A stretch of DNA of 64,000 nt. Source: Rhodanobacteraceae bacterium ZG21-1. GTDB lineage: Bacteria > Pseudomonadota > Gammaproteobacteria > Xanthomonadales > Rhodanobacteraceae. Below are positions 35,417 to 64,000 of the stretch, in pieces. Location of the stretch: positions 356,686 to 420,685 of the forward strand of contig JAJEJU010000023.1 in the NCBI GenBank assembly GCA_021390615.1, given 5' to 3'. The notes under the pieces are model-generated. The model saw only the letters and a program-made list of their open reading frames with translations. It was not told where the DNA came from and did no database searches. Both the position numbers and the translations under genes were made by a program. Every line of letters begins with the position of its first letter. The stretch's first letter is position 1.

Positions 35417-37282
<1,866 letters not shown>

Positions 37283-41216: not shown

Positions 41217-41292
<76 letters not shown>

Positions 41293-42039: not shown

Positions 42040-42094
42040 TCCCCGCCGTCAACCCGAAGCAGACATCACAAATATAGACTGGAGAGTCGTACGC

Positions 42095-42475: not shown

Positions 42476-42608
42476 TCAGTCCGACAGTTAGGGCGTCTGG
42501 AAGTGTTAGTTGCTCGGGTGGATAAGAACGCCAGGCGCGCTTCCGACCCGAAGCGTACAAGACCGAGATGTATCTTGATGGCCGATCAATCGAGCATGGA
42601 AATCGACG

Positions 42609-43079
42609 ATGGTGACGCAGTCTGAGGCCATTGCGGCCGTGGATCTGGCATTTGGCTCAACGCCCAAGCCCGATCACTTCACGAACTACACCCATTGCGA
42701 AGAGTGCGCCGAGCACGACGAGCTGCTTAGGAACCGCACCCGAGAAACGCTGGCCATCCAAGATGTCGGGAATCCCGGCTGGGAGCCGCTGTGCTTCTCA
42801 AGCCCTGAAGGCATCGCGTTCTACATGCCTTCGCTGGCTCGCCTGGCGTTTGCAGAGCCAGCTTATGGCTATGACTGGTACGGCGAGCAGTTGCTGTTCC
42901 ACCTCTATTCCGGTGGATTGAACAATGAGCTCTACATGTACTGCAACGCAAAGCAGAGAGAGGCCGTTGCAATCCTCATCGGGGCGATGATCGAGTTAAA
43001 ATTCGCTGACATCGAATCAAGTGCCAGCGAAGATGAGTTCCTCCGCGCGCACGAAATTTGGTCGTACGGTAGGTCTTGA
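42609..43079 (+). CDS. Hypothetical protein (island cargo)
   Basis: It is 156 aa and contains HCEECAEHDE. It has lower GC. Confidence 0.4.
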   Translation: MVTQSEAIAAVDLAFGSTPKPDHFTNYTHCEECAEHDELLRNRTRETLAIQDVGNPGWEPLCFSSPEGIAFYMPSLARLAFAEPAYGYDWYGEQLLFHLYSGGLNNELYMYCNAKQREAVAILIGAMIELKFADIESSASEDEFLRAHEIWSYGRS

Positions 43080-43204
43080 CGAGCAATCCATCTGGTTGCG
43101 GAACGTTCCTTTTGACTGCGCCTGCAGCCGGTCGGCGCAACACGCCATAGATACCTGTTGGCCAATATCAGCGACGTGGGGCATACATCACAACGAGACA
43201 CCGA

Positions 43205-43903
43205 GTGAAAGCCATCCTTGAAATCGCGCTCCTTCTCGGAGCCGCCATCTCCGCAGCCCACGCAAGCCCAGCGCCAACCAATCAGCCTCAGGTGGGGTAC
43301 CAGGTGCCGGCCTCCTGGAAACTGCTGAAGAACGGCGGTCCTGACGACAAGGATCGCACGGTGATGTACGAGGTCCTGAAAGGCGCAGATTCCGGCGATC
43401 ACCCCACCGTGATAATCAAGACCCACGCGGTACCGCCTGGCCTTCGCGCGGACGACGTCGATGTTGCCGAAGTAGCCCGACAGGTCGTTCCGTCCGGCGC
43501 ACCAGTCAGCGATGTCCACGACGGGCCGAATTGGAGAACCTGCGTCTTTCTCGGTCACGTCGACAACGCCAAGATCGTTGCTCTCTATCGCATCGGCCTG
43601 CAGGATGGCGAAGCCGTGGAGGCGGTGTTTATTTTCCCCCTGCCCAATGGCAAGCCCGAAGAGCTTGCCCTGCTGACCGTCGACGGTCAGGCTGACGAGC
43701 AGGGCCGGACAACCGGTGTCTACGCACCGCTGCAGAGCACGTACGAGATGATTTCGATATTCAACGATTTCACGAAGACGCTGACCATCAACGGCAAAAC
43801 GTCTTTCCACGCCAGGGCGGTCATGGCCAAACCAACGGAGAAGCCCACTGCGGTCTATCGCTGGATCGACTCCCCCGCCAGTTCAGCTTCTACCGGCGGC
43901 TGA
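43205..43903 (+). CDS. Secreted hypothetical protein (signal peptide)
   Basis: It has an N-terminal signal peptide MKAILEIALLLGAAISAAHA with an AHA-SPA cleavage context. It is 232 aa with no motif. Confidence 0.5.
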   Translation: MKAILEIALLLGAAISAAHASPAPTNQPQVGYQVPASWKLLKNGGPDDKDRTVMYEVLKGADSGDHPTVIIKTHAVPPGLRADDVDVAEVARQVVPSGAPVSDVHDGPNWRTCVFLGHVDNAKIVALYRIGLQDGEAVEAVFIFPLPNGKPEELALLTVDGQADEQGRTTGVYAPLQSTYEMISIFNDFTKTLTINGKTSFHARAVMAKPTEKPTAVYRWIDSPASSASTGG

Positions 43904-43969
43904 TCCTTGTCCTCAACGCTTACGATACCCGCGGCCATTTAATACACCGCCGTGGCGAGAGACTCGACC

Positions 43970-44404
43970 ATGATTCCTAGTGACATCGCTGAAGAACTGA
44001 CGCTTCGCTTCTCCGAAGCGTCGAAGGAATGCGACAGATCGCTTCGGGTGGTGATGACTCACCAAAGCCTGGGCGAAGTGAAGGTTCTTGGCAAACTGGT
44101 GGCCGACTTCATGGGGCACAGCTATCTGAACATACTCAAGCCCATCTGGGCTGCTCATCCAGAGCTCGAACCGATAGAAATGAAGGCGCCCTATAAGCCA
44201 CCTGTGGCGGAGCTCGCTCCCGAATCACGTGAGGCGCTTCAAGCGTTCCTGGCGGCAGCCCGATCCAGCATCGAACTTGCGAAGCAGCATATTCCCGAGG
44301 ATGAGCAGAAATCCTTATTTGCCTACGGCGGCATGGATGAAGTCGTCAAGGCTACCGAGGCGATCGCGGACTTCTTGGCGAACCCGCGCTTTCGGGACTC
44401 ATGA
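43970..44404 (+). CDS. Hypothetical protein (island cargo)
   Basis: It begins MIPSDIAEELTLRFSEASKECDRSL... and is helical. It has lower GC. Confidence 0.4.
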   Translation: MIPSDIAEELTLRFSEASKECDRSLRVVMTHQSLGEVKVLGKLVADFMGHSYLNILKPIWAAHPELEPIEMKAPYKPPVAELAPESREALQAFLAAARSSIELAKQHIPEDEQKSLFAYGGMDEVVKATEAIADFLANPRFRDS

Positions 44405-44461
44405 CGACGCACAGCCATGTCCGTTTCGTCCCAATGCGGAGAGGCTTCAAAAGGGAATGAC

Positions 44462-44740
44462 ATGACCGGCCACAACGACAGCCAGCTGATGGATCAGGGA
44501 AAGCACTTATTGGGCTCGACACTCACACATCGAGCATGGACGCCGGCGCATGCCGATGAGGATCATGACCATTGCACGCTGTGCTGGGCCAAATTTTCGA
44601 ATCTCGGCGCTCCGCGCGAGCTGAAGTCTGGATTTTGTACCTCGGACGGCCAGCACTGGGTTTGCCGGGAGTGCGTGGACCATTTCAAGGCCCGCTTTCG
44701 GTGGCTACTGGTCGACGCCATGGATGTGCGCGCTTCTTGA
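44462..44740 (+). CDS. Small Cys/His-rich (zinc-ribbon-like) hypothetical protein
   Basis: HDHCTLCWAKF...CTSDGQHWVCRECVDHF suggests a C4/C2H2-type metal site. An AAGGGAATGAC ribosome-binding site lies upstream of the ATG at 44462. Confidence 0.4.
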   Translation: MTGHNDSQLMDQGKHLLGSTLTHRAWTPAHADEDHDHCTLCWAKFSNLGAPRELKSGFCTSDGQHWVCRECVDHFKARFRWLLVDAMDVRAS

Positions 44741-45547
44741 GCTGTCCGCTTCCGCCCCGATGCAGACCCTGGCGATCACTTTGAAGCACATGAACGGACT
44801 GGCTGAACCCTTGGTTCGCGGCCATAGATCTGTCTTGAGCCGTTGTACTGGCGCAGGAACGTAGATAGCCATCAAGGCCCGATGGGTGATGCCTCGCATG
44901 GCGGGCCGGCCGAACCCATCGCGTGCGGCCGTGGTGGCGGCGCCTCCATTGAATGGATGAACAGCACCGCGCAAGTAGCGAACGCGCCGCTTACTTGAAG
45001 CAAGCCCCAGCAACGACGCCCCTGACCGGCCGGCGCCCGCGCTCATGCATCACTGGAAGCATGGCTCATGAAGGTCATGGTGCCGCAACATCAGGCTGCC
45101 AACCTTCCGATCGTTGTGGGATGGCGCTGTCGGTGATCGGCGAGCCTGTCTTCGCTCGCGTCCCGATGCGCCCCGGATCAGATCCGTCTCCGCATGCAGT
45201 TCTTCTTCTCTACCGTGCTCAGACTGAAGCGCGCACGCCGGAAGCGCAGCTCCTCTCGCGCCATCTTTGCCAGGGCATCTTCCACAGGCAAGCCCGCCAG
45301 CGCGGAGCCGGAATGCACCAGCCGATATCCGTCGAGATTCACGATCCAGCGCTTCACTGCTCGCGCGTGAAGGCTGCAGAACATTGGAGTGCGCTAAGCT
45401 TGAGGCTGGATGAAGTTCATCGCGAGGGGATCCCGGCCATACGAATTGAAATTATTTCGATGCGTTCTTTGCATTGAAAACCGGGATCGCGTCCAATTGC
45501 ATTAGATTAATCAGGCCAAGCTCTTTGATTTCCCAAGAGGATAAATC

Positions 45548-45898
45548 ATGTCCGAAACTCCACTACCGCCCGTACCGGCGGCACTCCGTGAAGCACTCAA
45601 GAACTATCCGGAATACCTGAGCCGCTTGCAAGATACGCTTAATACCCTGATTCGCGAACCAGCCCCTGGCGTCGATCCTTTTGAGCGGGCAGTCTGGCTG
45701 CTGGACGGCCAAATCGAGGCCTTCTATCACGAAGCGCAATCCGAACTGAATGCCGCCCGGGCCGGCGGAGATGCCAGGACTGTCGAAGCCGCAAAAGCCA
45801 AATCCACGTTAATGATACAAGCCGGCTCAAAAGCTTCGTGGATTGCAGATAAAGACCTTTCAGACTATATCCGCGACCACCGGAGGGCATTCTCATGA
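45548..45898 (+). CDS. Putative epsilon-like antitoxin of zeta-toxin TA pair
   Basis: It is a 116-aa helical protein. Its stop overlaps the toxin start (TCATGAGT, ATGA coupling). It has an AGAGGA ribosome-binding site, and its upstream region has TTGCATT direct repeats. Confidence 0.5.
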   Translation: MSETPLPPVPAALREALKNYPEYLSRLQDTLNTLIREPAPGVDPFERAVWLLDGQIEAFYHEAQSELNAARAGGDARTVEAAKAKSTLMIQAGSKASWIADKDLSDYIRDHRRAFS

Positions 45899-47196
45899 GT
45901 CTTGTCGGAGAGATACTCCCGGTTGACCCGATGGAACGCATGAGGAAGTCGCGTCTTCCGGAGGAAGAGCACAGGCAGGTTTTCAGGGATCAAGTCCTGA
46001 ATTCAAGCGGATTTCCGCAGGCCCAAAAAGTAGATGAAAGCAGCCAGCCCAAGGTCATCATCCTGGCCGGACAACCTGGCGCCGGCAAGGGCAACCTTAC
46101 GGCTGCCGCACAGTCCGAGCTTGCATCCAAGGGAGGAGCGGTAACCATCGATCCGGATGAGCTTCGGCGATTTCACACCAACGTTGAAACATTCCGCGAG
46201 AAAAGCCCTTATACGTGGGCGGACGACACTCAGCTGGATGCAAGCGCCTGGGCCAAGTCTCTACGCGACGAAGCCATCAATGGCAGGAAGAATGTCATTC
46301 TGGACACCACGCTCGGCGAGCAGCAAAAGGCCATTGAACTGGTCGAAATGTTTCAGAAAAAGGGCTATGCGGTCGAAATACGAGCGATGGCCGTACCACA
46401 GAGCGAGAGTGAGCTCGGCGTCGACAAGCGCTTCACTGACGGCCTCGTCAGAGAAGGCTTTGGTCGTTATGTGCCGGAAAAGCTCCGGGACGACGTCTAT
46501 AAAAACCTGCCGTCCGTCCTCGACGCCGTACATGACGAATCGCTGAAACCGGAAAGTCGCTTCAAAGAAGCTATCAAAATTAGCGTTTATGACCGCGGAA
46601 GCTTTGAGGCAGACCGCCTTCACCCAACGCCTCGATATAGCCAGATAGCCACCGAGGCTCGTGATGACAAACCTGGCCAGGCCATGGACAAGGTCCGCAC
46701 GGATCGAATGAATGACCCGCAGGTCGCAAGCCAACTCAGAGATGGCTGGGCGGCTCAAAAAGATTGGCATGCAAAACTAGAAACCAACCTGCCGACCTTT
46801 GATAAGGTCAAGCAGGATTCCAGAGCTCCCTTACTCCAGGAATTGGCTCTGGAAAAGGTGGCCGACAGTGTCAACAGGCGCTTTGAAGAAGCCGAGAGGC
46901 ATCTTTCCTCCGTGAAGGAAAGGCAATCACCATCAGAAAGCCCATCGCAACCCAAGAACGAACTGCTGGAAAGAGTTCAAAACATGAGGGAATCGATGCA
47001 GAGCGGCCATTCGGTCTCTGTGAGCGACATTCATGGCCTTGTCGATCCCGTGCAGGGAGCGCAACTGCATAGTCAATCTCAGAGCGCCGTGGATTTGCAG
47101 CAAACCCTTTCAAAGCCAAGTCCGGATCGTTCGCAGACGCCCGAAGTTCACGTAACGCCGGAAACCCCGAAAGATCAGTCGAATGTTCGCAAGTGA
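45895..47196 (+). CDS. Zeta-toxin family P-loop kinase (PezT/zeta-like) with long C-terminal extension
   Basis: A Walker A motif (ILAGQPGAGKGNLT) is followed by TIDPDELRRFH (catalytic Asp context) and VILDTTLG, matching the zeta/PezT UDP-GlcNAc kinase core (about 270 aa). An additional ~160-aa S/Q/E-rich low-complexity tail follows. It has lower GC. Confidence 0.7.
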   Translation: MSLVGEILPVDPMERMRKSRLPEEEHRQVFRDQVLNSSGFPQAQKVDESSQPKVIILAGQPGAGKGNLTAAAQSELASKGGAVTIDPDELRRFHTNVETFREKSPYTWADDTQLDASAWAKSLRDEAINGRKNVILDTTLGEQQKAIELVEMFQKKGYAVEIRAMAVPQSESELGVDKRFTDGLVREGFGRYVPEKLRDDVYKNLPSVLDAVHDESLKPESRFKEAIKISVYDRGSFEADRLHPTPRYSQIATEARDDKPGQAMDKVRTDRMNDPQVASQLRDGWAAQKDWHAKLETNLPTFDKVKQDSRAPLLQELALEKVADSVNRRFEEAERHLSSVKERQSPSESPSQPKNELLERVQNMRESMQSGHSVSVSDIHGLVDPVQGAQLHSQSQSAVDLQQTLSKPSPDRSQTPEVHVTPETPKDQSNVRK

Positions 47197-47958
47197 TCCA
47201 TAGGATTCAGTGACCATTGGGCGCGCGGAGATCTTCCGCGCGCCGCTTTCATCTATGCAGTGCTCTCTTTGACCGCAAGGCTTTTGAGCTGCACTCGAAG
47301 CCGAGCCGCCTTGGGCGGAAATTTTCGTCCGGATTTAAGCCAGCTGCGAGATCCGCCGCCCACTGCCTGGATCAAGTCGCGCTGCGCCTGGCGGCTCGCC
47401 CCGGGCGAGGATTCCGGCTCGTCTTCAGTGGATATCAACGGATCGAGCGAGCATCGCGCTCGAACTCGCATGGATGCCCAGATCGTGCCCGACCGTTCTT
47501 TCCAACCTGGGCAGGACCGTTCGGCCGGACGGCGGCAACCATCGCCCATGAAATCGCCGATGAATATGCCGCTGCCCTGCCGATCCCATCTCTGTGCGAA
47601 AGCGGCGCCCAACCCCAGCAAGGCCAGAACCGCAGCGAGTACCGATGCCAGGCCCGATTGGCGGTGCCGGCCGGCGCGGTTCAACCGGCTTGCCGGCAGC
47701 ATGCTGTCTTGCACAGTTAGCCGCGACGATTGCGGCGAGACTTTCGCCCAGGCGGAGCGCTGCATCCTCGATCTCCGCGACCAGGGGGTTCGCCGACATG
47801 CACACCGACGATGCACGATCCGGGACTCGCTGCCTGTGCGCGGCATTTGCCGCCGCGCCACGGCACCACAACACGTGCCGTGTATCGGCCCAGCCAAGCG
47901 CATCGTCCTCGGCGCGCCTGGCGCTGACTCCGCCCCCGACCTGTCCGTCGCCGATCCG

Positions 47959-49122
47959 ATGACACATGCTCCCCGCATCGCCATCGTCGGCGCCGGCCCC
48001 GGTGGCTTGACCCTGGCCTGCATGCTGCAGCAGGCCGGGCACTCCTTCACCCTGTTCGAGCTAGACGGCCACGCCCAGGCACGCCCGCAAGGCGGCACGC
48101 TCGACCTGGACCAGGAGATGGGACAGCTTGCGCTTCAACGCGCCGGGCTGATGGCCGCATTCCGTCGCCGGGCAAGGTACGAGGACCAGGAAACCCGTCT
48201 TTTCGACAAGACCGGCAAGCTGCTGTTCGAAGACTGCGGCGCGCCCAGCGACGAACGTCCCGAAATCGATCGGGCGCAACTGCGCGAACTGCTGCTGGAG
48301 GGCTTGCCGGAAGCCTCGATCCGGTGGAACCACAAGCTCCGCGAAGTATTGCCTCGCGCCGACGGCAAGTACGACCTGGTGTTCGACAAGGGCGTCTGCG
48401 ACGGCTTCGACCTGGTCGTCGGCGCCGACGGCACCTGGTCGCGCGTGCGTCCGCTGGTTTCTTCGTATAGCCCGCAGTACACCGGCGTCACCTTCATCGA
48501 ATTCGGCATAGACGATGCGGATCGCCGGCACCCGGCGCTGGCCCGCGTGGTAGGCCACGGAACGATGTCCGTGCTGGGAGACGGCATGGGCCTGTTCGCC
48601 CAACGCAACGCCGACGCCCATCTGCGCGTCTACGCGACCTTCCGCGCGCCCAAGGAATGGGCCAGCAGCACCTTCGACTTTTCCCGCCCGGCCTCGGTGC
48701 TGGCCGAGCTCAAGGCGCAATGCAGCGGATGGGCGCCGCTATGGCATGCGCTGATCGACGCCGGCAACGATCAGCTGCAGGCCCGCCGGATCTTCGCCCT
48801 GCCGGTAGGGCATCACTGGCTGCATCGACCAGGCATCACCCTGCTCGGCGACGCCGCCCACGTCATGTCGCCCTATGGAGGCAACGGGGTGAACATCGCC
48901 ATGTTCGATGCCGCCGAACTGGGCAGGCGATTGACCGAGCAGGCGGACTGGTCGGCGGCCGTCCAGGCCTACGAGCGCGACATGTTCGAACGTGCCCGCC
49001 CCTATGCGCTGTTCGCGGCCGAAGGCGTGGCGATCGCGCTCTCGCCGGCTTATCTGAAGCACGAAATCGACGCCCTGGAGAGAAGGCGCGCACGGCGAGC
49101 GGAACCGAGCACGCCGGCCTGA
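47959..49122 (+). CDS. FAD-dependent monooxygenase (TetX/UbiH-like flavin hydroxylase)
   Basis: It has a GxGxxG Rossmann motif (RIAIVGAGPGGLTLACML), DGxxS (VVGADGTWSRVR) and a C-terminal GDAAH motif (LLGDAAHVMSPYGGNGVN). It is convergent with the NRPS-PKS operon end. The start was reset to the ATG at 47959 inside the track ORF 47260..49122. Confidence 0.85.
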   Translation: MTHAPRIAIVGAGPGGLTLACMLQQAGHSFTLFELDGHAQARPQGGTLDLDQEMGQLALQRAGLMAAFRRRARYEDQETRLFDKTGKLLFEDCGAPSDERPEIDRAQLRELLLEGLPEASIRWNHKLREVLPRADGKYDLVFDKGVCDGFDLVVGADGTWSRVRPLVSSYSPQYTGVTFIEFGIDDADRRHPALARVVGHGTMSVLGDGMGLFAQRNADAHLRVYATFRAPKEWASSTFDFSRPASVLAELKAQCSGWAPLWHALIDAGNDQLQARRIFALPVGHHWLHRPGITLLGDAAHVMSPYGGNGVNIAMFDAAELGRRLTEQADWSAAVQAYERDMFERARPYALFAAEGVAIALSPAYLKHEIDALERRRARRAEPSTPA

Positions 49123-49257: not shown

Positions 49258-50511
49258 TCAGCTTGTCCGGGTCGCCTCCACCGGCGATACGCGCGAGGCG
49301 CGCATGGCCGGCGCCAATACCGCGCCCTGCCCCAGCAGCAGCAGCAGCAGCATGCCCAGCAGGACGTAAAGCGGAGACAGGCGCTTCATCTCGAAGGCGC
49401 CCATCATCCATTGGTTGAGTCCGACGGCCAGCAGGGCGCCGACGATCACGCCGCCCGCACTGATCAGGAAATTCTCCAGCAGGAAGTAATGCAGGATGCT
49501 CTGCTGAGTCGCTCCCAAGGCGCGGCGCACGCCGATCTGCTTGCGGCGCTGGCCGACCCAGAAACTGGTCAGGCCCACGATGCCGGCTGCCGTCACGATC
49601 AGCAGCACGGCGCTGACGGCGCCCATGAAGGTGGCGATGCCGATATCGGTCTTGTAAGCCTGCGCGCGCACCTCGGCGAATGTACGCACACCGCGGCGGT
49701 CCGGGATCACCCGCATGCGATTGGTGCGGAACAGCGCCTGCGGCACGCTCTTGCTGATCGCTTCCAGTTGGCCCGGCTGCGCCCGCACCAGATAGACATT
49801 GCGCTCGTCGGTAAGCTGGATCGGCGTCAACACGACATAGTCGCTGAATGCGTCGGTCCAGCTGCCGGGCCAAGGCACCTGCAGCTGCTCGACCACGCCG
49901 ATCACCGTGCTCGGCGTGCCGTTCTTGATCAGATAAATCGACTTGCCGAGGATGCTGCCGCCCGGATACAGGCGATCCGCAAGCGCCTTCGTGACGATCA
50001 CCGCCGGCGTGGGAACGAAGGTCTTGGAGTCGGCAGTGGCCACTTCGTCCGAGCGGAAATTGCGCCCTTCCAGCAGCCTGGCCCCCAGCGTCGCCAATGC
50101 ATGATCGTCGGTGGAGTACTGGGCCGCCCTGGTGATCGCCTTGTCGGTCGCCGGGTCCAGCCTTACGCCGGTCACCCGCCCGCCCACTCGCAGCGGAAAG
50201 GAATCGCTGAGCGTCGCGTCGCGCACGCCGGGCAGCTGGCGAATCGCCGCCAGGTCGGTGCGGATCAGCGCAGGCACGGCGTCGTTGCTGGCGCCGACCC
50301 AGCTGTTCTCGATCGCCAGCAGGCCGCTTTCTTCCACCCCGGAGGGGCGCGATATCCGATCGACCCGCTGCTTGATGATAAACAGGGCGTTGCAGACGAC
50401 CGCCAGGGTCAAGGCGATCTGCAAAGTGATGAGAATGGTGCCGGCCTTGTGCTTGCGCAGCGCGGCAAGGATCGGCTCGATCTGCAGGGTCACGGTTTGC
50501 CAGGTCATCAA
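49258..50511 (-). CDS. FtsX-like ABC transporter permease (MacB/LolCE-type topology)
   Basis: It has an N-terminal transmembrane helix (ILITLQIALTLAVVCNALFII), a large periplasmic domain and three C-terminal transmembrane helices with a conserved RRALGAT segment (RKQIGVRRALGATQQSIL). Confidence 0.8.
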   Translation of the reverse strand: MMTWQTVTLQIEPILAALRKHKAGTILITLQIALTLAVVCNALFIIKQRVDRISRPSGVEESGLLAIENSWVGASNDAVPALIRTDLAAIRQLPGVRDATLSDSFPLRVGGRVTGVRLDPATDKAITRAAQYSTDDHALATLGARLLEGRNFRSDEVATADSKTFVPTPAVIVTKALADRLYPGGSILGKSIYLIKNGTPSTVIGVVEQLQVPWPGSWTDAFSDYVVLTPIQLTDERNVYLVRAQPGQLEAISKSVPQALFRTNRMRVIPDRRGVRTFAEVRAQAYKTDIGIATFMGAVSAVLLIVTAAGIVGLTSFWVGQRRKQIGVRRALGATQQSILHYFLLENFLISAGGVIVGALLAVGLNQWMMGAFEMKRLSPLYVLLGMLLLLLLGQGAVLAPAMRASRVSPVEATRTS

Positions 50512-50518
50512 CGCATCC

Positions 50519-51832
50519 TCAATTCGACTTCAGCTGCCATGCCGGCTGCACTTGTGCCGCCCGCCAGGTGGGATAGAAGGCCGCCAGCAGCGTGGCCACG
50601 ATCGCGACCAGCAGGGTCAGCGCGATCAGCACCGCGTCGAGCCTGACCAGCCTGGCGATGTTCGGATCGAAGACCAGACCAACCCCGAGCATGCCGGCGC
50701 CGGTCAGCAGCAGGCCCAACAGGCCGCCTGCCGCACCGATCGTCCCCGCCTCGATCAGGAATTGCTTGTAGATGTCGTTGCGCGATGCGCCCAGCGCGCG
50801 CCGCAGGCCGATCTCTCCCGATCTGCGCAGGCTCTTCGCCAGCAGCAGGCCGATCGTGTTGACCAGGCAGATCAGCAGGAAGCCCAGCGACACCAGCATG
50901 GACATGCGCGATTCGGGGGGTACCACGTGCCGGTCGGCCAGCCACCGGGTCACATCGCTCAAGCGCACGTTCGGCGCCCAGTGGAAGCGTCCCGCACGCT
51001 GCTGTTCGGCGGCATAGCCCTGCAGGAACTGGCGATAGGCATCCGCCTCGGATGCGCTGGGCAGCTCCGCCCAGAACGCGATCCACACGCACTCCGAACG
51101 CAGAAAGTCCTCCCATCCGCTGCCGGTATCCTGATTGCACGCCGTATCGCCGGCAGTCGGCATCTGCAGATCGATCGCGCGGGTGAACGGCACGAACAAC
51201 TGCACCGCATCGCTGAAGCCCGAGGTGTTCACCGGATCGAAGAACAGCGGCTGCGGGTTCCAGGTATCCATCACGCCGGTGATCCGATAGTCCCGGCCGT
51301 CCAGGTTGATCGTGCGCCCGACGCTGTTGGCGCCGCCGAACAGGCGCTGATTAGTGTCGCGGCCGATCACCGCCACCGCGGCGTGCGCCTGATCGTCCGC
51401 CGCCGTCCAACCGCCGCCGTATTCGAAGGGGATATCGAACATCGCGAAGGTGTCGGCGTAGGCCGCATAGCTCAGCGGACGGAAGGGCAGCCGGTTCGGA
51501 TCGCTGGGCACCAGAGACGGCGCGATCGGGAACAGCGCGGTCTGGCGCGGCGCCTTGTGCGCCAGCATCAGGGCCGTCGCGTCCGCATAGCTCAACGCAT
51601 CCGGCGGATCGCCCCCGTTCTCGGCCGCCCTGGCGGGGCCCCAGTTGTCGATCTGGGGCGCGAACAACTGCGCCGATTTCTGCGGGATCGGATTATTGGA
51701 GGTGGCGCGAAAAACCGCATAGCTGGTGATCGAAGCCGATACGCCGAAGCCCATGGCGATAATCATCAACAACGTCAGTGCCGGGTTCCGACGCAAACTG
51801 CGCAGCCCAAGACGGGCGTAATAGGCAAACAT
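50519..51832 (-). CDS. FtsX-like ABC transporter permease (paralogue)
   Basis: It has the same architecture: LTLLMIIAMGFGVSASITSY..., a periplasmic domain and ...EIGLRRALGASRNDIYKQFLIEAG... It is 8 bp upstream of the paralogue, and no ATPase gene is adjacent. Confidence 0.8.
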   Translation of the reverse strand: MFAYYARLGLRSLRRNPALTLLMIIAMGFGVSASITSYAVFRATSNNPIPQKSAQLFAPQIDNWGPARAAENGGDPPDALSYADATALMLAHKAPRQTALFPIAPSLVPSDPNRLPFRPLSYAAYADTFAMFDIPFEYGGGWTAADDQAHAAVAVIGRDTNQRLFGGANSVGRTINLDGRDYRITGVMDTWNPQPLFFDPVNTSGFSDAVQLFVPFTRAIDLQMPTAGDTACNQDTGSGWEDFLRSECVWIAFWAELPSASEADAYRQFLQGYAAEQQRAGRFHWAPNVRLSDVTRWLADRHVVPPESRMSMLVSLGFLLICLVNTIGLLLAKSLRRSGEIGLRRALGASRNDIYKQFLIEAGTIGAAGGLLGLLLTGAGMLGVGLVFDPNIARLVRLDAVLIALTLLVAIVATLLAAFYPTWRAAQVQPAWQLKSN

Positions 51833-51927: not shown

Positions 51928-53571
51928 TCACAGCACCAGCTCGCTGCAGCCGTACAGACGCTCGGACTCGATGCCGTTCGAGGCGCAATACTCGACGAAA
52001 CTATTGGACTCGAGGATCTGGATGCTGTCGGGCTGGTACTGCAGGCCCATCAGCGCGCGCAACCACGGCTCCTGGCCCATCGCATAGACGTAGGCGCGCG
52101 ACGGCTTGATCTTCGCCACCGCATTCCTGGCCCGCTCGAAATTCGAGCCCGACAGCCGGCGGGACTCGTCGTCCTTGCGGCTGGGCTGCCGATTCAGCAG
52201 CGGCCCGTACAGCCAGGTCAGCGGCGCGCCGTGGCATTCCATGCCCAGGAACACCACGTCGACGCGACCGAGCACGCCGGCGAGATGATCGAAAATCCTT
52301 TCGTCGACGGTGTCCGAGTCGGCCATGAAGAGCAGCCGCTGCCCCGCCAGTTCGACCAGCAGGCAGTGCTTGCTGAGCACGTCGAGGCCCGAGTGCTCGC
52401 CGATGAACGGCAGGCTGGTCAGCGAACCGCCCGGCAGCTCGATCGCGTCCAGTGGGTCGACCACTCGCACGCGGCGGAAGCCCAGGGTCGCGAGCATCAG
52501 CTTCAAGGACGGATCGGCGACATTGCCGGCATCGTTGCGCGGCACGATCACCTCGCCCACGCGCTCGCGCAGCTGCAGCAGCATGTCGGGCACCAGATGA
52601 TCCTGATGGCCGTGCGTCAGCACCAGATAATCGATCTTGTCCGGCAGGTCGACGAAGGTCAGCGTGGCCTCCTGCTGGTCTCGCTCCCATGCGGTCAGCG
52701 CATCGATCAGGATGGCCACGCCGGCCGCCTCCACCAGTACGCAGGCATGACCGAAATACCTGATGCGCAGGCCCTGGCCGTCGAAGTTCGGCGCATTGCG
52801 CCCCGGCGCCTGGTTGGTGAAGAAACGCTCGAAGCCGCCTTCGTCGACCAATTCCGGCGGCAGGCTGGCGCGAATCTCGGCGGCGCTCATCGGCTGGTAG
52901 CGCAACTTCGCCAGCAGATCGACCCGCTCGTCTAGGAACGGCATCTTGAGCACCACCCGCTCGGGCGACTTCAGCAGCGGCGTGCTCATGAAAAAAGTCC
53001 GCTCGATCGAGCGCGTGGTATGCACGCAGATTTCCTGCAGCTCGGTGGTATGCGCCCGCCAGCGCTGATACGACAACTCTTCGAGCACGCGGATCTTCGG
53101 GTGGCTGTTGATGTCGTAGGTCAGCTCCACCAGGCCGCGCAGCGAGTCGGGAACCTGGGCGTAGAACTCGTCGAGACAGAAGCCCTTGGCGCCGCCCTGC
53201 AGCTTGAGGTCGAACTCCTGGAAATCCTGGGCGATTTTCAGCAGCTCGCCGCCGCGCCCGTGGATGTCGTCGATCAGCTCGCGCACCGCCGGAATGTCGC
53301 TCATCGCCAGGCAGACGAACGGCCCACCGAGCATGTCGGGATCTTCGGCGGCGGCCACATGCACCGACGGACTGGCGACGAAGGACTTCAGATTCGGCAG
53401 CTGCCGGTTGGCCAGATTCATGGCGTACTGCAGTGGCGGCAGCAGATGCGGCCAGGTCGGCCAGCCGCACATCAAGGGTTCTATCTTCACGTCCGATTTC
53501 AGATACCACTGATCCTTGCCCGGCGAAGCCACTTCGCCGGACGCCGTCGTCTCACCGCTTACGCGCTTCAT
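51928..53571 (-). CDS. MBL-fold metallo-hydrolase with ~300-aa N-terminal extension
   Basis: The C-terminal half has the metallo-beta-lactamase motif set (...[15 protein letters not shown]...[11 protein letters not shown]...FIGEHSGLD...). The N-terminal 300 aa match no recognisable domain. A GGAGA ribosome-binding site is present, and its ATG overlaps the NRPS stop by 4 bp. Confidence 0.8.
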
Positions 53572-56500
53572 GCCTGTCTCCTGTCTACATTTCTGACCAG
53601 CTGGATCAGCGTGGATTCGAAGCTTCTCGCCAGCTTGCGCAGCGTCTCTTCGTGATGCAGCTGATCGCTGTATATCCACGAGCAGCGCAGCACGTCGTCC
53701 ACGAAAACCGTCTGCAGTTCGATGTCATTCCTGCGCATGGCGCGGTCCGGCAGCACATAGACCGGGCCGTCCGGCAGGGGGATTCTTCCCAGCAGGCCGG
53801 CCGCCTGCGACGGCGCCTTCTGCTCGCCCTGGTGGTTCAGACACAGGGCACAGGCCTGCCAGTCCATGCCGCGCTCGAAGCGCTGCGCGGCGCTGGCCCA
53901 GTAGGCCAGTCCGGCCGCGTCCGCACGCTCGCCCTGGACGACGATCTGCCGCACCAGCGTGGCCAGGTCGCGCGGGCCGCGGAAATCGATCGTCACCGGC
54001 ACGCCGGCGGTGAACCAGCCGACCGAGCGCGAAAGATCGCCCTGCAGATGCAGTAGTTCGCGCCCGTGGAACAGCTGCTCCACGGCGACGGCGTCGTGCC
54101 CCGTCCACAACTGGATCGCCTGCGCGAGTGCAATCAGCAGCAAGTCTTCGACGCGTATGCCCAGCTGGCTGGCGGCGGCCATGCAGGCCTGCGGCGAAAT
54201 CTCCGGCGCCGATACGACCAGCCACTGCGTCGACGCGACGGTGTTGTTTCCGGCCGGATGATCCTTCGGCAGCGGCTGCTGCAAGGATGCCTCGCGCGCC
54301 GCCCCTTCCAGCTCGGCCTGGCCTTGTGCGGTGGCGAAATGCTCGGCGACCGCGCGCGCCCAGGCCGAGAAGCTGGTGCCCGGCGGCGGCAGCTGCGCCG
54401 CAGCGCCTTCCTCGCACTGCAGGCAGAGCTGCTGCAGCTCCTCGGCAAGCACCGGGTACGACAGCACGTCGTTGGCGAAGTGATGGATCGCCAGCACCAT
54501 GCGCTGCGGCCGGGCATCGCCGTAGTCGAACAGCACCGCCTTCAGCAGGCGGCCCGACGCCAGATCGATGTCGCGCCGCAGCTGATCGATCTCGCCGGCC
54601 ACCCGCAACGACAGCTCCGGCTCGGCGACGGCCGAGAGATCGACAACGCTGCACAGGGCTTCCGCAGGCGTAGGCGCCGGCCCTTGTCGTTGCTGCCATG
54701 ACCCGTCGCTCTCGGACACCACCAGGCGCAGCGCGTCATGGCGCGCGACCAGGGCGTGCAGCGCCTTGCGCAGCGCCTCCGCCGACACGCGCCGGCTCAA
54801 TTCGTAGTGGTAGGTGTTGGAGAGTATCGATATCTCGTCCCGCCACAGGGCGAGCATGATGCGTTGCACCGGCGTCAGCGGCACGCGGTCGTCCTGCACG
54901 CCCTGCTCGACGGTCGCCGATGCGGGAGCGGCTTCGGCGACCTTCACCATCGCCGCCAGCTCGGCGATGGTCTGGTAGCGGAACAAGTCCTTGGGCACGA
55001 ACACCATGCCTGCCCGCTTGGCCAGGCTGACCAGCTGGATCGCTGTGAAGCTGTCGCCGCCGAGCTCGAAGAAATTCTCGTCGATGCCGACCTGCTCGCG
55101 CTTCAGCAGCTCGCAGAACAGGCCCGCGAGCAGCCGCTCCTGCGCTGTTCTCGGCTCGCGCCGCGTGGCCGCTGCGAGATCCGGCGGCGGCAGCCGGTGG
55201 CGATCGACTTTGCCGTTGGCACTGAGCGGCAGGCTGTGCAGGGCGACCACGACGGCCGGCACCATATGCTCCGGCAGCTGCTCGGCCATGAACTGACGCA
55301 GCGTTGCGGGCACGGCGTCCTGGCCGGCCGCCGCCACGGCATAGGCGACCAGTTGCTTTTGTCCGGGTCGATCTTCGCGCAACAGCACGGCTGCCTGGGC
55401 CACGCTGGAGTGGCGGGTCAGACAGGCCTCGATTTCGCCCAGCTCGATGCGGAAACCACGCAGCTTGACCTGGTCGTCGGTGCGGCCGAGATAGTCGAGC
55501 CGCCCGTCGGGCAGCCAGCGCACCAGGTCGCCGCTGCGATAGAGCCGGCTGCCGGGCGCACCGAAAGGATTCGCCACGAAGCGCGAAGCGCTCAGGCCCG
55601 GGCGATTCAAATAACCGCGGGCGAGTCCGTGGCCGGCGATATAGAGCTCGCCGGGCATGCCGGCCGGCACCGGCTTCAGCGCATGGTTCAACACATACAC
55701 CTGTGTGTTCCAGATCGGCCGGCCGATCGGCACCAGGCCCTCCCGATGATTCTCCAGGCGCACCTCGTGGAACACGCAGCCGACCACCGTCTCGGTCGGT
55801 CCGTACTCGTTGACGATGCAGGCGTGCGGCGAATGCGCGAACCAGTCGGCGACGGTCGCAGCCGGCAGTGCTTCGCCGCCGACGACCACGTGATGCGCCA
55901 GATCGACGCCGCTCGACGACGACAGCAGCTGATTGAGGATGGCGAGCTGGGCCGGCGGCAGTTTCAGCAGGCTTAGTCCGCGCGGGCCGTCGGCGCCGGC
56001 GAGGGTTTCGAACTCCTCCGACTCCGGCAGCAAGGTGACCGCCTTGCCGCAGAGCAGGGGCAGGAACAGGCTGGTGACGGTGGCGTCGAAGGACAGCGAG
56101 GTACTGATCGCCGCTCCCGTTCCCTGCTCCATCTGGTAGGCGGCGGCAGCCCAGGCGGCGTAGTTGTGCAGCCCGCCGTGGGTGATCACCACCCCCTTCG
56201 GCCTGCCGGTCGAGCCCGAGGTGTAGATCACGTAGGCCGGATGCTGTGCGCCGGCTTTTGCGGGAGGCGCGCTGGCGGGCTTGCGCGCGATCGCGGGCCA
56301 ATCCAGGTCGAGCATGATGGCCCGTCCGCGATAAGCCGGCAGCCTGCCTTCGGCGGACTCGACGGTGAGCAGCACCGGCGCCAGCGAATCCTCCAGCATG
56401 AAGGAGATGCGCTGGGTGGGATAAGCCGGGTCGATCGGGAGATAGGCGCCGCCGGCCTTCAGGATGCCCAGCAGGCCGATCACCATTTCCGGCGAGCGCG

Positions 56501-58184
56501 GCACGCACAGCGCGACGACGATCTCGGGCCCCACGCCCGACCGCTGCAGGTAATGCGCGAGCTGGTTGGCCTGCTGATCCAGCTCGCGATAGCTCAGCGT
56601 GCGATCGCCGTGGATCAGCGCCGCCGCGTCCGGCGAACGCTGCGCCTGCTCCTCGAACCACTCGTGGATGCGCCGTTCGCGCGGAAACTCCATGCCGGTG
56701 GCATTCCATGCCTGCAGCAGGCGCAGCCGCTCGTCCGGATTCAACAGCTCCAGCTGTTCCAGCGGCTGCTCCGGGCGCGCGACCACTTCCTGCAGCAGCC
56801 GGCCGAAGTGTTCGACGAAACGCTCGATCGTCGGCGCGTCGAACAGATCGGCCGCGTATTCGAGGCCGCCGCGGAAACCTTCCTCGGTTTCCCCGATCAC
56901 CAGAGTCAGGTCGAACTTCGCGGTGACATGCCGCGAACCGATCAGCTCCAGCTGCAGATCGCCCAGCTCGAAGTTGCCGGCGGCGCCGCTGCGCAGTTCC
57001 ATCAGCACCTGGAACACCGGCTGGCGCGACAGGTCGCGGGTCGGCGCCAGTTCCTTCACCAGCCGCTCGAACGGAAGATCCTGGTTGGCGTAGGCGGCCA
57101 GCGCGGTCTCCTTCACCTGGTGCAGCAATGCCCTGAAATCCTTCGCCCGATCCAGCCGCGCCCTGATCGCCAGCGTGTTGACGAACAGCCCGATCATGTG
57201 TTCCGTCTGCGGGTGTGTACGGCCCGCCGTGGAGGTGCCCACCACCACGTCCTGCTGTCCGCTCCACTGCGACAGCGCCAATTGGAAGGCCGCCATCAGC
57301 AGCATGAACAGGGTGACTTCTTCCTGCTTCGCCAGTCGCGCGACGGCGTCGCTCAATGCCTTGGGCAGGACGATCGGGCAGGTGCCGCCCCGATGGCTCG
57401 GCACCACCGGCCGCGCACGATCCGTGGGCAGCTCCAGCACCTCGGGTGCGCCGTCCAGCTGCTTGCGCCAGTGCTCCAGCTGCCGGGCCAGCGCCTCGCC
57501 TTCGGAAGACCTGCGCTGCCACAGCGCGAAGTCGGCGTATTGCGCGGCCGGCTCGGCAAGCGGCGACGTCTCGCGGCGGCAGTAAGCCTCGTAGAGGCTT
57601 TTCAGTTCCCGCTCCAGCACGCCGTTGGACCAGCCGTCCGAAATGATGTGGTGCATCGCCAGCGCCAGCACGTGCTCCTTCGGCCCCAGCCGCAGCAGGC
57701 TCACTCGGAACAGCGGGCCGCGCGCCAGATCGAAGGGGCGCAGGAATTCCTGCCGCACGAAGGCCGGCAGCACGTCGCCGTCGCCTGCGGCGGCCAGCTC
57801 GTCCACGCTGCGCCGCAGAATGGAGAAATCCTCCGCGCGCCCGATCAGCTGATGCGCCTGGCCGTCCACCGCGTCGAAGCGCGTGCGCAGGCTCTCGTGG
57901 CGGCGCACCAGTTCGCGGAAGCTGTTTTCCAGCGCGTCCTCGTTCAACTCGCCCACCAGGCGCATGGCGATGAACATGTGGTAGGCCGAGCCCACCAGGC
58001 CCATCTGCTCGACGAACCACAGCCGCTCCTGTGCATACGAAAGCGGCAGCCGCTCGCCCGGCTGGCGCAACCCCTGCAGCGAACCCGCCGCCGCGCCGGC
58101 CTGCCGCGCGTTCCTGCGGCTCGCCAGCTGCTTCAACTGCTGCGGCGAAAGCTGGGCGATGCGATCTGCGATGGAACCGTTCAC
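53568..58184 (-). CDS. Non-ribosomal peptide synthetase module C-A-T plus terminal condensation-like (Ct) domain, no TE
   Basis: The C domain has HHIISDGWS (HHxxxDG). The A domain has [51 protein letters not shown] and [20 protein letters not shown]. The PCP has [15 protein letters not shown] second C-like domain with HHFANDVLS sits at the C-terminus. The protein is 1538 aa. Confidence 0.92.
53571..54887 (-). other. Terminal condensation-like (Ct) domain of NRPS (approximate)
   Basis: It spans aa ~1100-1538 ([10 protein letters not shown]...[11 protein letters not shown]...). It shows a C-domain fold signature downstream of the PCP in place of a thioesterase. Boundaries are estimated by residue counting. 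Confidence 0.6.
55185..56672 (-). other. Adenylation domain of NRPS 53568..58184 (approximate)
   Basis: It spans aa ~505-1000 from the A1 (LSYRELD) through the A10 region. The A4 segment is [10 protein letters not shown] and A5 is [12 protein letters not shown]. Substrate is not assignable by eye. Confidence 0.6.
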
Positions 58185-61100
58185 GCGTATTTCTCGCTGC
58201 TGGTGGTTTCGCTCACGGCTCGGACATCGCGGGACTGACCATCCAGCACGACGGCGGCGTCGCCCGCCTCAAGAGTCTCCAGGTAGGCGCCCATGTCGCC
58301 TTCGTCGATCTCGTCGGCGAGCTGCGCCACGATCTCTTCGGCCAGTGCCTTGACCGTGCCGCTGGCGGAAATCAGCACCTTGGGCGAGATCCGCACGCCG
58401 TACTCGTCCCTGATCCGCGAGATCACCCGCAGGGCGATCAGCGAATCGCCGCCCAGCGACATGAAGGTGTCGCTGCGACCCACGGCATCGATGCCCAGCA
58501 CTTCCTCCCACATCGCCGCCATGCTGGCCTCGAGCTCGCTCCAGCCGCTGGCGATGACGGGCGCCTGCACCGGCGCAGCCTGCAGCGGCGCCTCGGTGCG
58601 CGAAGCCGCGGGCTGCTCGTGCACCGGCGCCTCGCGCTTCCTGACCTCGATCCAATAGCGCTGGCGCTGGAACGGATAGGCCACCAGGCCCACCCGCGAA
58701 CGCCGCTCGCCGCGATGAAAGGCCTGCCAGTCGACGGCTGCGCCCAAGGTCCACAGACGGGCCAGCTGCCCGAGCAGCGCGCTGCGGTCGGACGAACCAT
58801 CGCTAGCCAGCGATCCCACGTAGGCATGCTCCGGCGCGCTGCCGAACTGCTGCCGGGCCAGGCCGGTCAGCGCCTGGCCGATACCCAGCTCGAGCCAGAT
58901 CGTCGGACTGCCGCCGGCAGCGGCAGCCAGAGCCGCCTGGAAATCCACCGGCTCGCGCAAGTGACGCGCCCAGAACGAGGCCTCCAGTGGCGCGGTCGCG
59001 CTCACCGGCGCACCGGTCAGGCACGACACATAGCGGATGCCCGGCGTCGCGTAGCGGCAGGAGCGCGCCGCCTGTTCAAGCCCGGCCATGGCCGGCTCCA
59101 TCAGGCGCGAGTGGAACGCATGCGACACCGACAGCCGGTGATGCTCCACGCCGCGCGCGGCGAGCGTGGCGGCCAGCGCGTCGATCGCCGCCGCAGGCCC
59201 GGACAGCACGCACTGCGTCGGCGCATTGATTGCAGCCACCGACAGTGCTTCGCCCAGCAGCGCCTGCACCTCGCCCACCGGCAGTCGCACCGCCAGCATG
59301 GCGCCGGCAGGCTGCTCGCTGACCAGCTGCGCCCGGCGCGCCAGCAGCGCCACCGCGTCATGCAGCGAAACGGCTCCGGAGATGCAGGCCGCGATGTATT
59401 CGCCGACGCTGTGCCCGACCACCGCGGCGGGCTTCACACCCCAATGCATCCACAGCTTCGCCAGGCTGTAGCCCACCGTGAACACGGCAGGCTGGGTGAA
59501 CAGCGTGCGATCGATGGATGCCGCCGCCTCCGTGCCGGCCGGCGCGCAGATGACGCTGCGCACGTCGAAGCCCAGGCGCTCCTGGAACAGCGCCGCGCAC
59601 TCGTCGATGCGGGCGCGGAAGTAGGCGTCCGTGTCGTACAGCGCCTGCACCGCTCCCGATCGCTGCGAACCCTGCCCCGGGAACATGAAGACCACCGGGC
59701 GATCCACATGCTGGTCGTGCACGTCCTGGGCCGCCACCGCCTCGTCGCGCAGGGCGCGGATCAGTTCCTCGCGATGCTTCGCCACCACGCTGCGCCGATG
59801 GGCGAAGCGGCGGCGGCCGCGTTGCAAGGTGTAGGCCACGTCCGCCAGATCCAGCTGCGGCCGCTCCTCGAGGTGGCGCGCCAGCGCGGCGCCGAGCTGC
59901 CGCAGCGCTTCGCCGGTATGCGCCGACAGCGGGAATACCTGGGCGGAGGGATCGGCCGCCGATGGCGCCGGCCGGGCCGGCGCTTCCTCCACCACCACGT
60001 GCGCATTGGTGCCGCCCATGCCGAACGAGCTGACGCCAGCGCGGCGCGGCTTGCCGTCGCTGTGCCAGGGCGCGTACTTGGTGCTCACGTAGAACGGGCT
60101 GGTGGGGGATTCCAGCGCCGCATTCGGCCGGCTGAAGTTCGCCGACGGCACCAGGTGCTTGTGCTTCAGGCACAGCACGGCCTTGATCAGCCCGGCCACG
60201 CCCGCCGCGCAGTCCAGGTGGCCGATGCTGCCCTTGATCGAGCCCAGCGCGCACCACTGCTTGTCGGCCGTGCCGGTGTCGAAGGCCTCGCCCAGCGCGG
60301 TCAGCTCGACCGCGTCGCCCAGCACGGTGCCGGTGCCATGGCCTTCGAGCATGCCGATGTCGGTCGGCTGCAGCTCGGCGAAGGCCAGCGCCGAGGCGAT
60401 CAGCCGCGCCTGCGCCTTGATGCCCGGCGCGGAAAATCCGGCCTTGTCGGCGCCGTCGTTGTTGACCGCGCTGCCGCGGATCACCGCATGGATCTCGTCG
60501 CCGTCGCGAAGCGCCTCGTCCAGCCGCTTGAGCACCACGATGCCGCAGCCGCTGCCGCCGATGGTGCCGGTGGCGTCGGCGTCGTAGGCGCGACAGATGC
60601 CGTCCCGCGAGGAGATGCCGCCTTCCTCGTAGATGTAGCCGCTGTCCTGGTTCAACTTGATCGACACGCCGCCCGCCAGGGCCATGTCGCTCTCGAAGGT
60701 CAACAGGCTCTGGCAGGCCATGTGCACCGCGACCAGCGAACTCGAGCAGGCGCTCTGCACCGTGACGCTGGGCCCGTTCAGGCCGAGCTTGTACGACACC
60801 CGCATGGTGAGGAAGTCTTTCTCGCCGTCGAGCGAGGTCTGGTGCCAGTTGCCCGAGTTGGATTCGATCAGCTCCTGCATGCGGGTATACAGGTACAGAT
60901 TGCTGCCGCAGCCGCCGTAGATCCCCACGATGCCCTTGTACTGCTCGGGGTCGTAGCCGGCGTGCTCCAGGCCTTCCCAGGCGCATTCGAGGAACAGCCT
61001 GCCCTGCGGATCGAGGCTGCTCGCCTGTCTCGGGCTGTAGCCGAAGAAGCCCGCGTCGAAGCGGTCGTAATCCGCGAGCGGCACGGTGGCCTTCACGTAA

Positions 61101-61277
61101 TGCGGGTTCTGGATCAGCGAGGGACTCACCCCGGCCGCGGCCAGCTCGGCATCGGACAGCTTGACGATCGAATGGCGTCCGCTTTTCAGCAGCTGCCACA
61201 ACTCGTCGACGCTCTTCGCCCCCGGAAAGCGGCCCGCCATGCCGATGATGGCAATGGCATTGGCGCTGTTTGCTTGC

Positions 61278-61285
<8 letters not shown>
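58181..61285 (-). CDS. Type I polyketide synthase module KS-AT-ACP (no KR/DH/ER)
   Basis: The KS domain has [15 protein letters not shown] (active Cys), EGHGTGT and GHLDCAAG (His/His). The AT domain has FPGQGSQ, GHSVGEY and HAFHS. The ACP has LGGDSL. The N-terminal [13 protein letters not shown] is typical of a hybrid KS downstream of an NRPS module. The protein is 1034 aa. Confidence 0.92.
58316..58543 (-). other. ACP/thiolation domain of PKS (approximate)
   Basis: It spans aa ~915-990 with GGDSL at ~945-948. Confidence 0.55.
58796..59698 (-). other. Acyltransferase domain (approximate)
   Basis: It spans aa ~530-830, with GQGSQ at ~537, GHSVGE at ~624 and HAFHS at ~722. The HAFH motif is more typical of malonyl-CoA-specific ATs (inference). 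Confidence 0.55.
59984..61261 (-). other. Ketosynthase domain (approximate)
   Basis: It spans aa ~9-434, with Cys180 in TVQSACSSS, His315 in EGHGTGT and His356 in GHLDCAAG. Confidence 0.65.

Positions 61286-64000
<2,715 letters not shown>

Follow-up and report, generated by a model that had tools for sequence, protein, structure and literature searches.

A gene named for its MBL fold in a Rhodanobacteraceae NRPS-PKS cluster very probably encodes a CmlA/FrsH-family diiron β-hydroxylase

The window analysed here, meaning the whole 64,000-nucleotide stretch of DNA from a Rhodanobacteraceae bacterium, carries part of a hybrid NRPS-PKS cluster on its minus strand. In the direction of transcription this comprises the 3' end of a large NRPS gene, a KS-AT-ACP PKS gene, the gene of a 1538-aa NRPS, a gene which we assign to a non-haem diiron monooxygenase (NHDM), and two permease genes. 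The genes and NRPS domains are given below, with the evidence for each in brackets.

61278..64000, minus strand: 3' part of the large NRPS gene, (C)-A-T, running off the window (Pfam; His-like A code)
58181..61285, minus strand: PKS module KS-AT-ACP, without reductive domains (Pfam, NCBIfam)
53568..58184, minus strand: NRPS of 1538 aa, C-A(Asn)-T-E (Pfam, code, PDB comparison)
56718..58049, minus strand: C domain of the 1538-aa NRPS (Pfam)
55209..56657, minus strand: A domain of the 1538-aa NRPS, with an Asn code (Pfam and Stachelhaus code)
54945..55133, minus strand: T domain of the 1538-aa NRPS (Pfam; motif GGDSF)
53571..54887, minus strand: E domain of the 1538-aa NRPS (best PDB matches are E domains)
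53568..53571, minus strand: ATGA, in which the start codon of the NHDM gene overlaps the NRPS stop codon (read from the sequence)
51928..53571, minus strand: putative NHDM gene, 547 aa, with its stop codon at 51928..51930 (ORF and translation)
50519..51832 and 49258..50511, minus strand: two MacB_PCD/FtsX permease genes (Pfam)

Elsewhere the window holds housekeeping genes, among them rpoD, topA, dprA and those for LPS glycosyltransferases, together with a convergent flavin monooxygenase gene and, separately, a low-GC island that includes a zeta-toxin gene. The RpoD encoded here is 90-94% identical to that of Frateuria, Dyella and Rhodanobacter, in keeping with a source among the Rhodanobacteraceae of the gammaproteobacteria.

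At 53571 the ATG of the NHDM gene overlaps the stop codon (TGA) of the preceding NRPS ORF (53568..58184) to form ATGA, and 8-12 nt 5' of this ATG there is a GGAGA. Three close homologues (70-79% identity) are each exactly 547 aa in length, with 100% coverage, and for this reason we place the start at 53571 and not at the in-frame upstream GTG at 53679. Codon-position GC content of the ORF is also coding-like (GC3 0.82, GC2 0.42, in a window of ~68% GC). A scan for promoters and terminators across 47-54 kb of the window gave no signal exceeding shuffled expectation. The gene lies between the NRPS gene and the two permease genes, all on the same strand, which bears out its membership of an assembly-line operon as proposed in a preliminary description of this DNA; the permeases are of the MacB_PCD/FtsX ABC type and are probably for export. 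That description had also read the gene product as a large MBL-fold hydrolase with an unknown N-terminal domain of ~300 aa, translationally coupled to the last NRPS, and had suggested that it could be an off-loading or proofreading thioesterase, or else a tailoring or self-resistance hydrolase.

The coupling is real, in that the ATGA joins the gene to the final NRPS gene of the operon, although the NRPS itself ends in an E domain and is not chain-terminating. Pfam labels its terminal domain 'Condensation', and a C-A-T-C arrangement was considered and rejected on PDB comparison, where the best matches are the E domains of PvdL, TycA (2xhg, 1e-26) and GrsA (5isw). The domain also carries E-type motifs, and the T domain that precedes it reads GGDSF, with the other T domains reading GGHSL. 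Since the protein ends in E, its D-residue must pass to a module encoded elsewhere, with release also taking place elsewhere, and so its module is not the last of the line, although no further NRPS gene follows in the operon. An MBL-type thioesterase for off-loading or proofreading, like those of fungi that partner TE-less polyketide synthases, would fit with the coupling to an NRPS gene and with the lack of a TE or R domain in the portion of the cluster that the window covers; however, the chain has to move on from the E domain to a further module.

A-domain codes were taken by alignment to GrsA, with GrsA itself as a control giving DAWTIAAICK. The module adjoining the NHDM gene has the code DATKVGEVGK when extracted by hand and DATKVGEVCK in the pairwise alignment to GrsA, one position different, and DATKVGEVGK corresponds to Asn (PMC3547906 Table 2). 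The module before the PKS has the code DSASVAEVWK, with 8 of its 10 positions common to DSALIAEVWK, a code for His (PMC12283262). The window shows neither a reductase nor a ferredoxin partner, and its portion of the cluster has no gene for a TauD/αKG-type Asn β-hydroxylase.

Using Pfam, the NHDM divides into two domains.

52810..53505, minus strand: CmlA_N domain, residues 23-254 (Pfam PF18456, 3.3e-68, profile positions 1-231 of 232)
51931..52779, minus strand: MBL-fold domain with the predicted diiron site, residues ~265-547 (Pfam; alignment to the FrsH and CmlA MBL domains)

The N-terminal region, ~265 aa rather than ~300, is not an unknown domain, as it is matched by PF18456 (CmlA_N), which Pfam entitles 'Diiron non-heme beta-hydroxylase N-terminal domain', and it is a named and structurally solved domain present in two solved structures. 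From residue ~269 the C-terminal half is matched by Lactamase_B_2, Lactamase_B_3 and Lactamase_B, and the MBL fold of the preliminary description is correct. The protein has the two-domain order of the family, CmlA_N followed by an MBL fold, in which total length is about 530 aa. Furthermore, a phmmer search of the PDB matched it over its full length to 8a90 (E 1.5e-162, query residues 20-546), and the CmlA entries 4jo0, 5kik and 5kil were also full-length matches at about 1e-85. Pairwise identity is 47% to FrsH (8a90, full length) and 31% to CmlA, whereas the only hydrolases among the PDB matches were UPF0173 proteins (E 2.5e-4 to 1.7e-3) over ~60-70 residues.

An AlphaFold2 model of the NHDM, made with a 20-sequence alignment as input (pLDDT 87, pTM 0.90), gave the same picture. 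Using Foldseek this model superimposed on 8a90, titled 'Crystal structure of FrsH' in the Foldseek table, with a TM of 0.91/0.94 and an rmsd of 2.2 Å, and on CmlA with a TM of 0.85/0.89. FrsH and CmlA were matched over both domains, contrary to the notion of an unknown N-terminal domain, and the remaining PDB matches were MBL proteins restricted to the C-terminal half (TMq <=0.36, 10-18% identity). Hydrolytic MBL proteins are therefore weak matches to this half only, while homology to CmlA and FrsH runs the full length, and neither a hydrolase nor a thioesterase is what these comparisons describe. The thioesterase reading has the MBL fold in its favour, but full-length homology is to oxygenases and not to hydrolases, the 230-aa CmlA_N is specific to NHDMs, and FrsH, the closest solved relative, is a hydroxylase that stands beside a separate TE (PMC7794379).

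Likewise, NCBIfam models of RNase Z, β-CASP nucleases, PhnP and β-lactamases all scored far below their cut-offs. A match to an RNase J/Z-type protein had been named beforehand as the sign that would speak against the thioesterase or tailoring hydrolase; none was found (NCBIfam E 0.01-0.3), and the hydrolase reading fails on the other grounds given here. A housekeeping RNA-processing MBL protein of the RNase J/Z or β-CASP type would share the HxHxDH motif with the NHDM, and only that. Matches to RNase Z (E 0.28, 10.2 bits against a cut-off of 293), aCPSF1 (E 0.013, 13.7 bits against a cut-off of 580) and Cas14 (E 0.01) each cover ~50 residues and lie below their cut-offs, Pfam finds no β-CASP domain in the NHDM, and the CPSF73 and ELAC structures align poorly with the model (TMq 0.2-0.33), which makes this reading exceedingly improbable.

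We located the residues of the predicted metal site by alignment to CmlA.

52597..52614, minus strand: HxHxDH motif, H320-G-H322-Q-D324-H325 (aligns with CmlA HNHQDH; conserved in 20/20 and 89/89 sequences)
52396..52398, minus strand: E392, predicted iron ligand, equivalent to CmlA E377 and HynC E375 (alignment; invariant)
52318..52320, minus strand: D418, predicted bridging carboxylate, equivalent to CmlA D403 (alignment; 89/89)
52237..52239, minus strand: E445, predicted carboxylate ligand, equivalent to CmlA E430 (alignment; 89/89)

The diiron ligands of CmlA, which we take to be H305, H307, D309, H310, E377, D403 and E430, fall in the HMMER alignment on H320, H322, D324, H325, E392, D418 and E445 of the NHDM, and the bridging role of D418 and the ligand role of E445 are presumed to carry over from the CmlA structure. 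These seven ligand positions are invariant in an alignment of 20 homologues (D418 at >=90%), and all seven are again invariant in a second alignment of 89 sequences that includes CmlA and FrsH. The set comprises three His (H320, H322, H325) and four carboxylates (D324, E392, D418, E445), and is not the His/Asp set of hydrolytic MBL proteins, some β-lactamases also using Cys, since E392 and E445 are Glu and are family-invariant. The habitual MBL ligand sets consist of His and Asp only, with more acidic sets in the iron oxidoreductases (PMC7785958), and the carboxylate-rich set found here favours a diiron oxygenase over a Zn hydrolase. Changing the Glu equivalent to E392 into Asp inactivates both CmlA and HynC (PMC8252469), and PDB entry 5kil bears the title 'CmlA E377D mutant'.

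Compared by description, the fungal MBL-type thioesterases, like hydrolytic MBL proteins in general, share with the NHDM the αββα MBL fold and the HxHxDH motif. They are, however, single-domain proteins of about 300 aa, and the NHDM differs from them in its additional CmlA_N domain and in its later ligands. These are Glu/Asp/Glu, where the habitual MBL hydrolases have only His and Asp (PMC7785958). Taking all these comparisons together, we regard an off-loading or proofreading thioesterase as very unlikely.

The full NHDM as query retrieved >6,000 clusters at 90% identity (E <=1e-20), usually annotated as 'MBL fold metallo-hydrolase' or 'UlaG', and the CmlA_N domain alone retrieved 522 clusters at 50% identity, mostly of 525-545 aa. 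In species-representative genomes there are at least 590 NHDM loci, distributed over Proteobacteria, Acidobacteriota, Cyanobacteria, Bacteroidota and others. An NRPS A or C domain lies <=10 kb away in 53 of 81 homologue loci, and natural fusions of the forms NHDM-A-T, NHDM-C and NHDM-docking-R (R being a reductase) also occur in the family. Co-occurrence with NRPS genes, which the preliminary description had suggested checking, holds for this majority but not throughout, as about a third of the loci have no NRPS within 10 kb, and some members of the family may consequently act in other settings. For the window NHDM itself the NRPS context is given by the ATGA overlap with the C-A-T-E gene and by orthologous contigs, in addition to these 53 loci and the fusions.

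This association also bears on whether the protein might be a hydrolase for self-resistance or product modification, with the finished metabolite as its substrate. The MBL fold and the adjoining exporter permease genes would suit such a role, but a family found beside NRPS loading domains, and in places fused to them, does not, there is no β-lactamase similarity (NCBIfam bla models, E 0.07-0.25), and the oxygenase homology, ligand set, CmlA_N and E-domain ending count against it as they do against a thioesterase. We consider this reading slightly less probable still. Of the tailoring or self-resistance hydrolase proposed earlier, tailoring enzyme survives in the broad sense, whereas hydrolase does not, given the full-length homology to diiron β-hydroxylases; the 'hydrolase' label derives from the fold and not from something present in the sequence. 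Sequence, fold, ligand set and NRPS context each support membership of the CmlA/FrsH family, and we conclude that the gene very probably encodes an NHDM of this family which tailors a building block and neither releases nor hydrolyses.

CmlA is the β-hydroxylase of L-p-aminophenylalanine (PAPA), and the characterised NHDMs, namely CmlA, Tcp25, FrsH and HynC, all use L-amino acid thioesters on NRPS carrier domains as substrates for β-hydroxylation. By analogy with these enzymes we infer NHDM chemistry on a carrier-bound substrate for the window protein. In such a scheme the NHDM would first dock in trans onto an NRPS module and accept the L-aminoacyl thioester on the phosphopantetheine arm of the T domain. 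The diiron centre would then be reduced and O2 used for hydroxylation of the β-carbon, and this hydroxylation would precede condensation of the residue into the chain, with extension following. NHDMs have been described for chloramphenicol, teicoplanin and FR900359 (PMC8252469). HynC acts on Tyr and Leu on T domains (PMC8252469), and FrsH hydroxylates L-Leu loaded on FrsA, as reconstituted in vitro with chemical reduction (PMC7794379).

The window NHDM belongs to a small clade with partners of 70-79% identity, every other relative being 55% identical or less. In a metagenome contig with a 71%-identical NHDM the gene order is kept, with NRPS, KS-AT-ACP, C-A(Asn)-T-E, NHDM and two permeases; on this orthologous contig the NRPS/NHDM overlap is also 4 nt and the Asn module has the code DATKVGEVGK. 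In a third relative (70% identity) this E domain again lies immediately 5' of the NHDM gene. The orthologous NRPS that corresponds to the large gene running off the window is 5380 aa in length and ends in a Phe module (DAWTIAAVCK) followed by a His module (DSALVAEVWK); a metagenome scan lengthened the orthologous contig by 4.6 kb, equal to one added module (Phe). With the partial upstream NRPS of the window as query, only generic NRPS fragments of 41-57% identity were retrieved, and the 5380-aa orthologue was absent from the matches. Past the permeases the neighbourhoods differ between relatives, and so we place the end of the cluster there.

Wherever context is known in this clade, a C-A(Asn)-T-E module lies just before the NHDM gene, and because the translational coupling to the Asn module is conserved we favour Asn as the target. 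L-Asn on the coupled C-A(Asn)-T-E module is our leading guess, offered tentatively and at somewhat less than an even chance, and would give a D-β-hydroxy-Asn residue after epimerization. Among the other candidates Phe is possible but rather unlikely, a different upstream residue more doubtful, and His the least likely. We know of no characterised NHDM that acts on Asn or His, and found none in the literature searched, so that Asn would be a new substrate for an NHDM. In general terms, it may be, though we would put it below evens, that this clade hydroxylates carrier-bound Asn, or with less likelihood the His that feeds the PKS, which would be a new substrate class for the diiron β-hydroxylases, as hydroxylation of Asn and His has up to now been ascribed to αKG enzymes.

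Set against Asn is the prospect that an enzyme of the same class has Phe, a His-like residue or a residue activated beyond the window as its target, and not the adjoining Asn, to which we give an even chance. The β-OH-His residues known so far are products of αKG-dependent enzymes, which counts against His, and in two relatives the start of the NHDM gene overlaps the stop of the Asn-module gene, with a third having its NHDM gene just behind this same E domain, which counts against any residue other than Asn. On the other side, Phe-code and His-code modules lie just upstream in the orthologous 5380-aa NRPS, the substrates of characterised NHDMs are all aromatic or Leu (PAPA, Tyr and Leu; PMC8252469, PMC7794379), and the His code DSALIAEVWK reportedly accepts the β-OH modification (PMC12283262). 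Furthermore, FrsH is a modifying enzyme with a gene of its own, and yet it works for FrsA as well as for the FrsD-G line (PMC7794379). This, together with the diversity of A codes beside homologues (Phe, Tyr, Leu, Val, Ile, Ser, Thr, Asn, His, Dab and others), makes gene adjacency a weak guide to the target of an NHDM. For the same reason of diversity, and because the flanks were too short, the A codes beside the 53 homologue loci were rejected as a predictor of substrate.

Comparison with characterised systems places the window NHDM nearest to FrsH (PDB 8A90), the L-Leu β-hydroxylase of FR900359 biosynthesis in Chromobacterium vaccinii. Both have the two-domain architecture (531 aa in FrsH, 547 aa here) and an identical seven-residue metal site, and both are encoded by a stand-alone gene in an NRPS cluster. 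Unlike the setting of FrsH, the window cluster is a hybrid NRPS-PKS and its adjoining module is predicted to activate Asn and not Leu, and the window NHDM sits in a separate small clade. CmlA (PDB 4JO0/5KIK), the chloramphenicol enzyme and founding member of the family, likewise combines CmlA_N with an MBL-fold diiron domain, but identity is only 31%, and its partner CmlP is a single A-T-R module whereas the partner here is a multimodular hybrid line. HynC of hypeptin and Tcp25 of teicoplanin are similar by description, as stand-alone NHDMs acting on T-bound Tyr or Leu, and hynC is also encoded in a cluster with NRPS and transporter-related genes (PMC8252469).

Hypeptin differs, however, in that its Asn is hydroxylated by the αKG enzyme HynE and not by the NHDM HynC. 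If Asn is the target of the window NHDM, its product would be the same β-OH-Asn that is made by the TauD/αKG Asn β-hydroxylases HynE, CloD and the AsnO type, although these have an unrelated fold and use mononuclear Fe(II) with α-ketoglutarate in place of a diiron centre. In hypeptin and clovibactin β-OH-Asn is the product of a TauD-type enzyme, and HynE also works on T-bound Asn (PMC8252469; bioRxiv 10.1101/2023.05.15.540765).

The main value of this analysis is one of correction, as the names 'MBL fold metallo-hydrolase' and 'UlaG', taken from the fold, lead to the wrong chemistry. The NHDM family is already known and structurally characterised, and what is mildly novel is only the possibility of an Asn- or His-specific diiron β-hydroxylase. 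With the protein identified as a β-hydroxylase, the product of this uncharacterised NRPS-PKS cluster is predicted to contain a β-hydroxy amino acid, and E392D becomes a ready-made mutant control. If the substrate is indeed Asn or His, the substrate range of diiron β-hydroxylases would become modestly wider, which is no conceptual advance but would help with structure prediction from gene clusters and with engineering. For the Rhodanobacteraceae bacterium itself, Asn as the target would mean D-β-hydroxy-Asn in an undescribed hybrid peptide-polyketide.

Two features of the operon were delimited as follows, one being the domain that closes the 1538-aa NRPS, a C-A(Asn)-T-E protein encoded directly before the CmlA/FrsH-type non-haem diiron monooxygenase (NHDM), and the other the PKS module:

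53571..54887, minus strand: epimerization (E) domain, C-terminal in the 1538-aa NRPS, assigned from PDB matches and motifs
58181..61285, minus strand: PKS module, with the domain content KS-AT-ACP

The Pfam label 'Condensation' for 53571..54887 was rejected because the best PDB matches were the E domains of PvdL, TycA and GrsA. E-type motifs are present, the preceding carrier (T) domain carries GGDSF, and on this sequence evidence the terminal domain is classed as an epimerization domain. The window contains no domain that would release the chain (TE, R or terminal C). The PKS module is flanked by the His-like NRPS module on one side and by the Asn module on the other, and contains no KR, DH or ER, and we therefore predict a His-derived γ-amino-β-keto acid as the intermediate, afterwards amide-linked to Asn.

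Examination of the surroundings of the operon gave a flavin monooxygenase gene, a low-GC island and a housekeeping marker:

47260..49122, plus strand: flavin monooxygenase (FAD_binding_3), with a Tet(X)-like C-terminal part
40000..47200: low-GC island, GC 58-61% vs ~68-70%
45895..47196, plus strand: zeta-toxin/AAA_33 ORF, inside the island
40375..41226, plus strand: ORF in the island, no Pfam match
42932..43810, minus strand: ORF in the island, no Pfam match
35390..37282, plus strand: RpoD gene

The flavin monooxygenase gene is convergent to the NRPS operon and is missing from the orthologous metagenome contig. Its ~380 C-terminal residues are similar to Tet(X)/tetracycline destructases (NF033111, 1e-45), with a score of 156 bits that is far under the 750-bit cut-off of that model. 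The ~230-aa N-terminal extension of the listed ORF is probably not translated. The low-GC island, which separates housekeeping genes from the cluster tail, could represent inserted mobile or accessory DNA adjoining the gene cluster. RpoD is 90-94% identical to that of Frateuria, Dyella, Rhodanobacter and Fulvimonas, which assigns the window to the Rhodanobacteraceae. In the scan of species-representative genomes no NHDM more than 52% identical to that of the window was present among the matches listed, and these genomes do not contain an exact 51-mer taken from the end of the window.

Searching with the NHDM N-terminal domain also showed that natural fusions to NRPS parts occur, namely NHDM-A-T, with the Ser-like A-domain code DVFHFSLVDK, NHDM-C, and NHDM-TubC_N docking domain-reductase (proteins P0442, P0410 and P0431). 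Two further proteins (P0407 and P0385) have 250-300 additional C-terminal residues, with no Pfam match there. At one homologue locus (L085; Xanthomonas arboricola MIGG01000015.1, 8224..11620) two NHDM genes form a tandem pair that adjoins an MbtH gene, and the A-T-sulfotransferase protein also encoded next to the pair has the A code DFSAVGLVWK. Locus L086 is similar in that a sulfotransferase, a PKS and an MbtH gene accompany the NHDM, and together these look like a recurring hydroxylate-then-sulfate arrangement. No NRPS A or C domain lies inside 10 kb at 28 of the 81 homologue loci (L039, L042, L067, L014 and L018 among them), where neighbours include formyltransferases, aminotransferases, ABC exporters, an argininosuccinate-lyase-like gene and a D-aminoacyl-tRNA-deacylase-like gene. 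Either the NRPS is located beyond 10 kb at these loci, or certain NHDMs function outside NRPS pathways.
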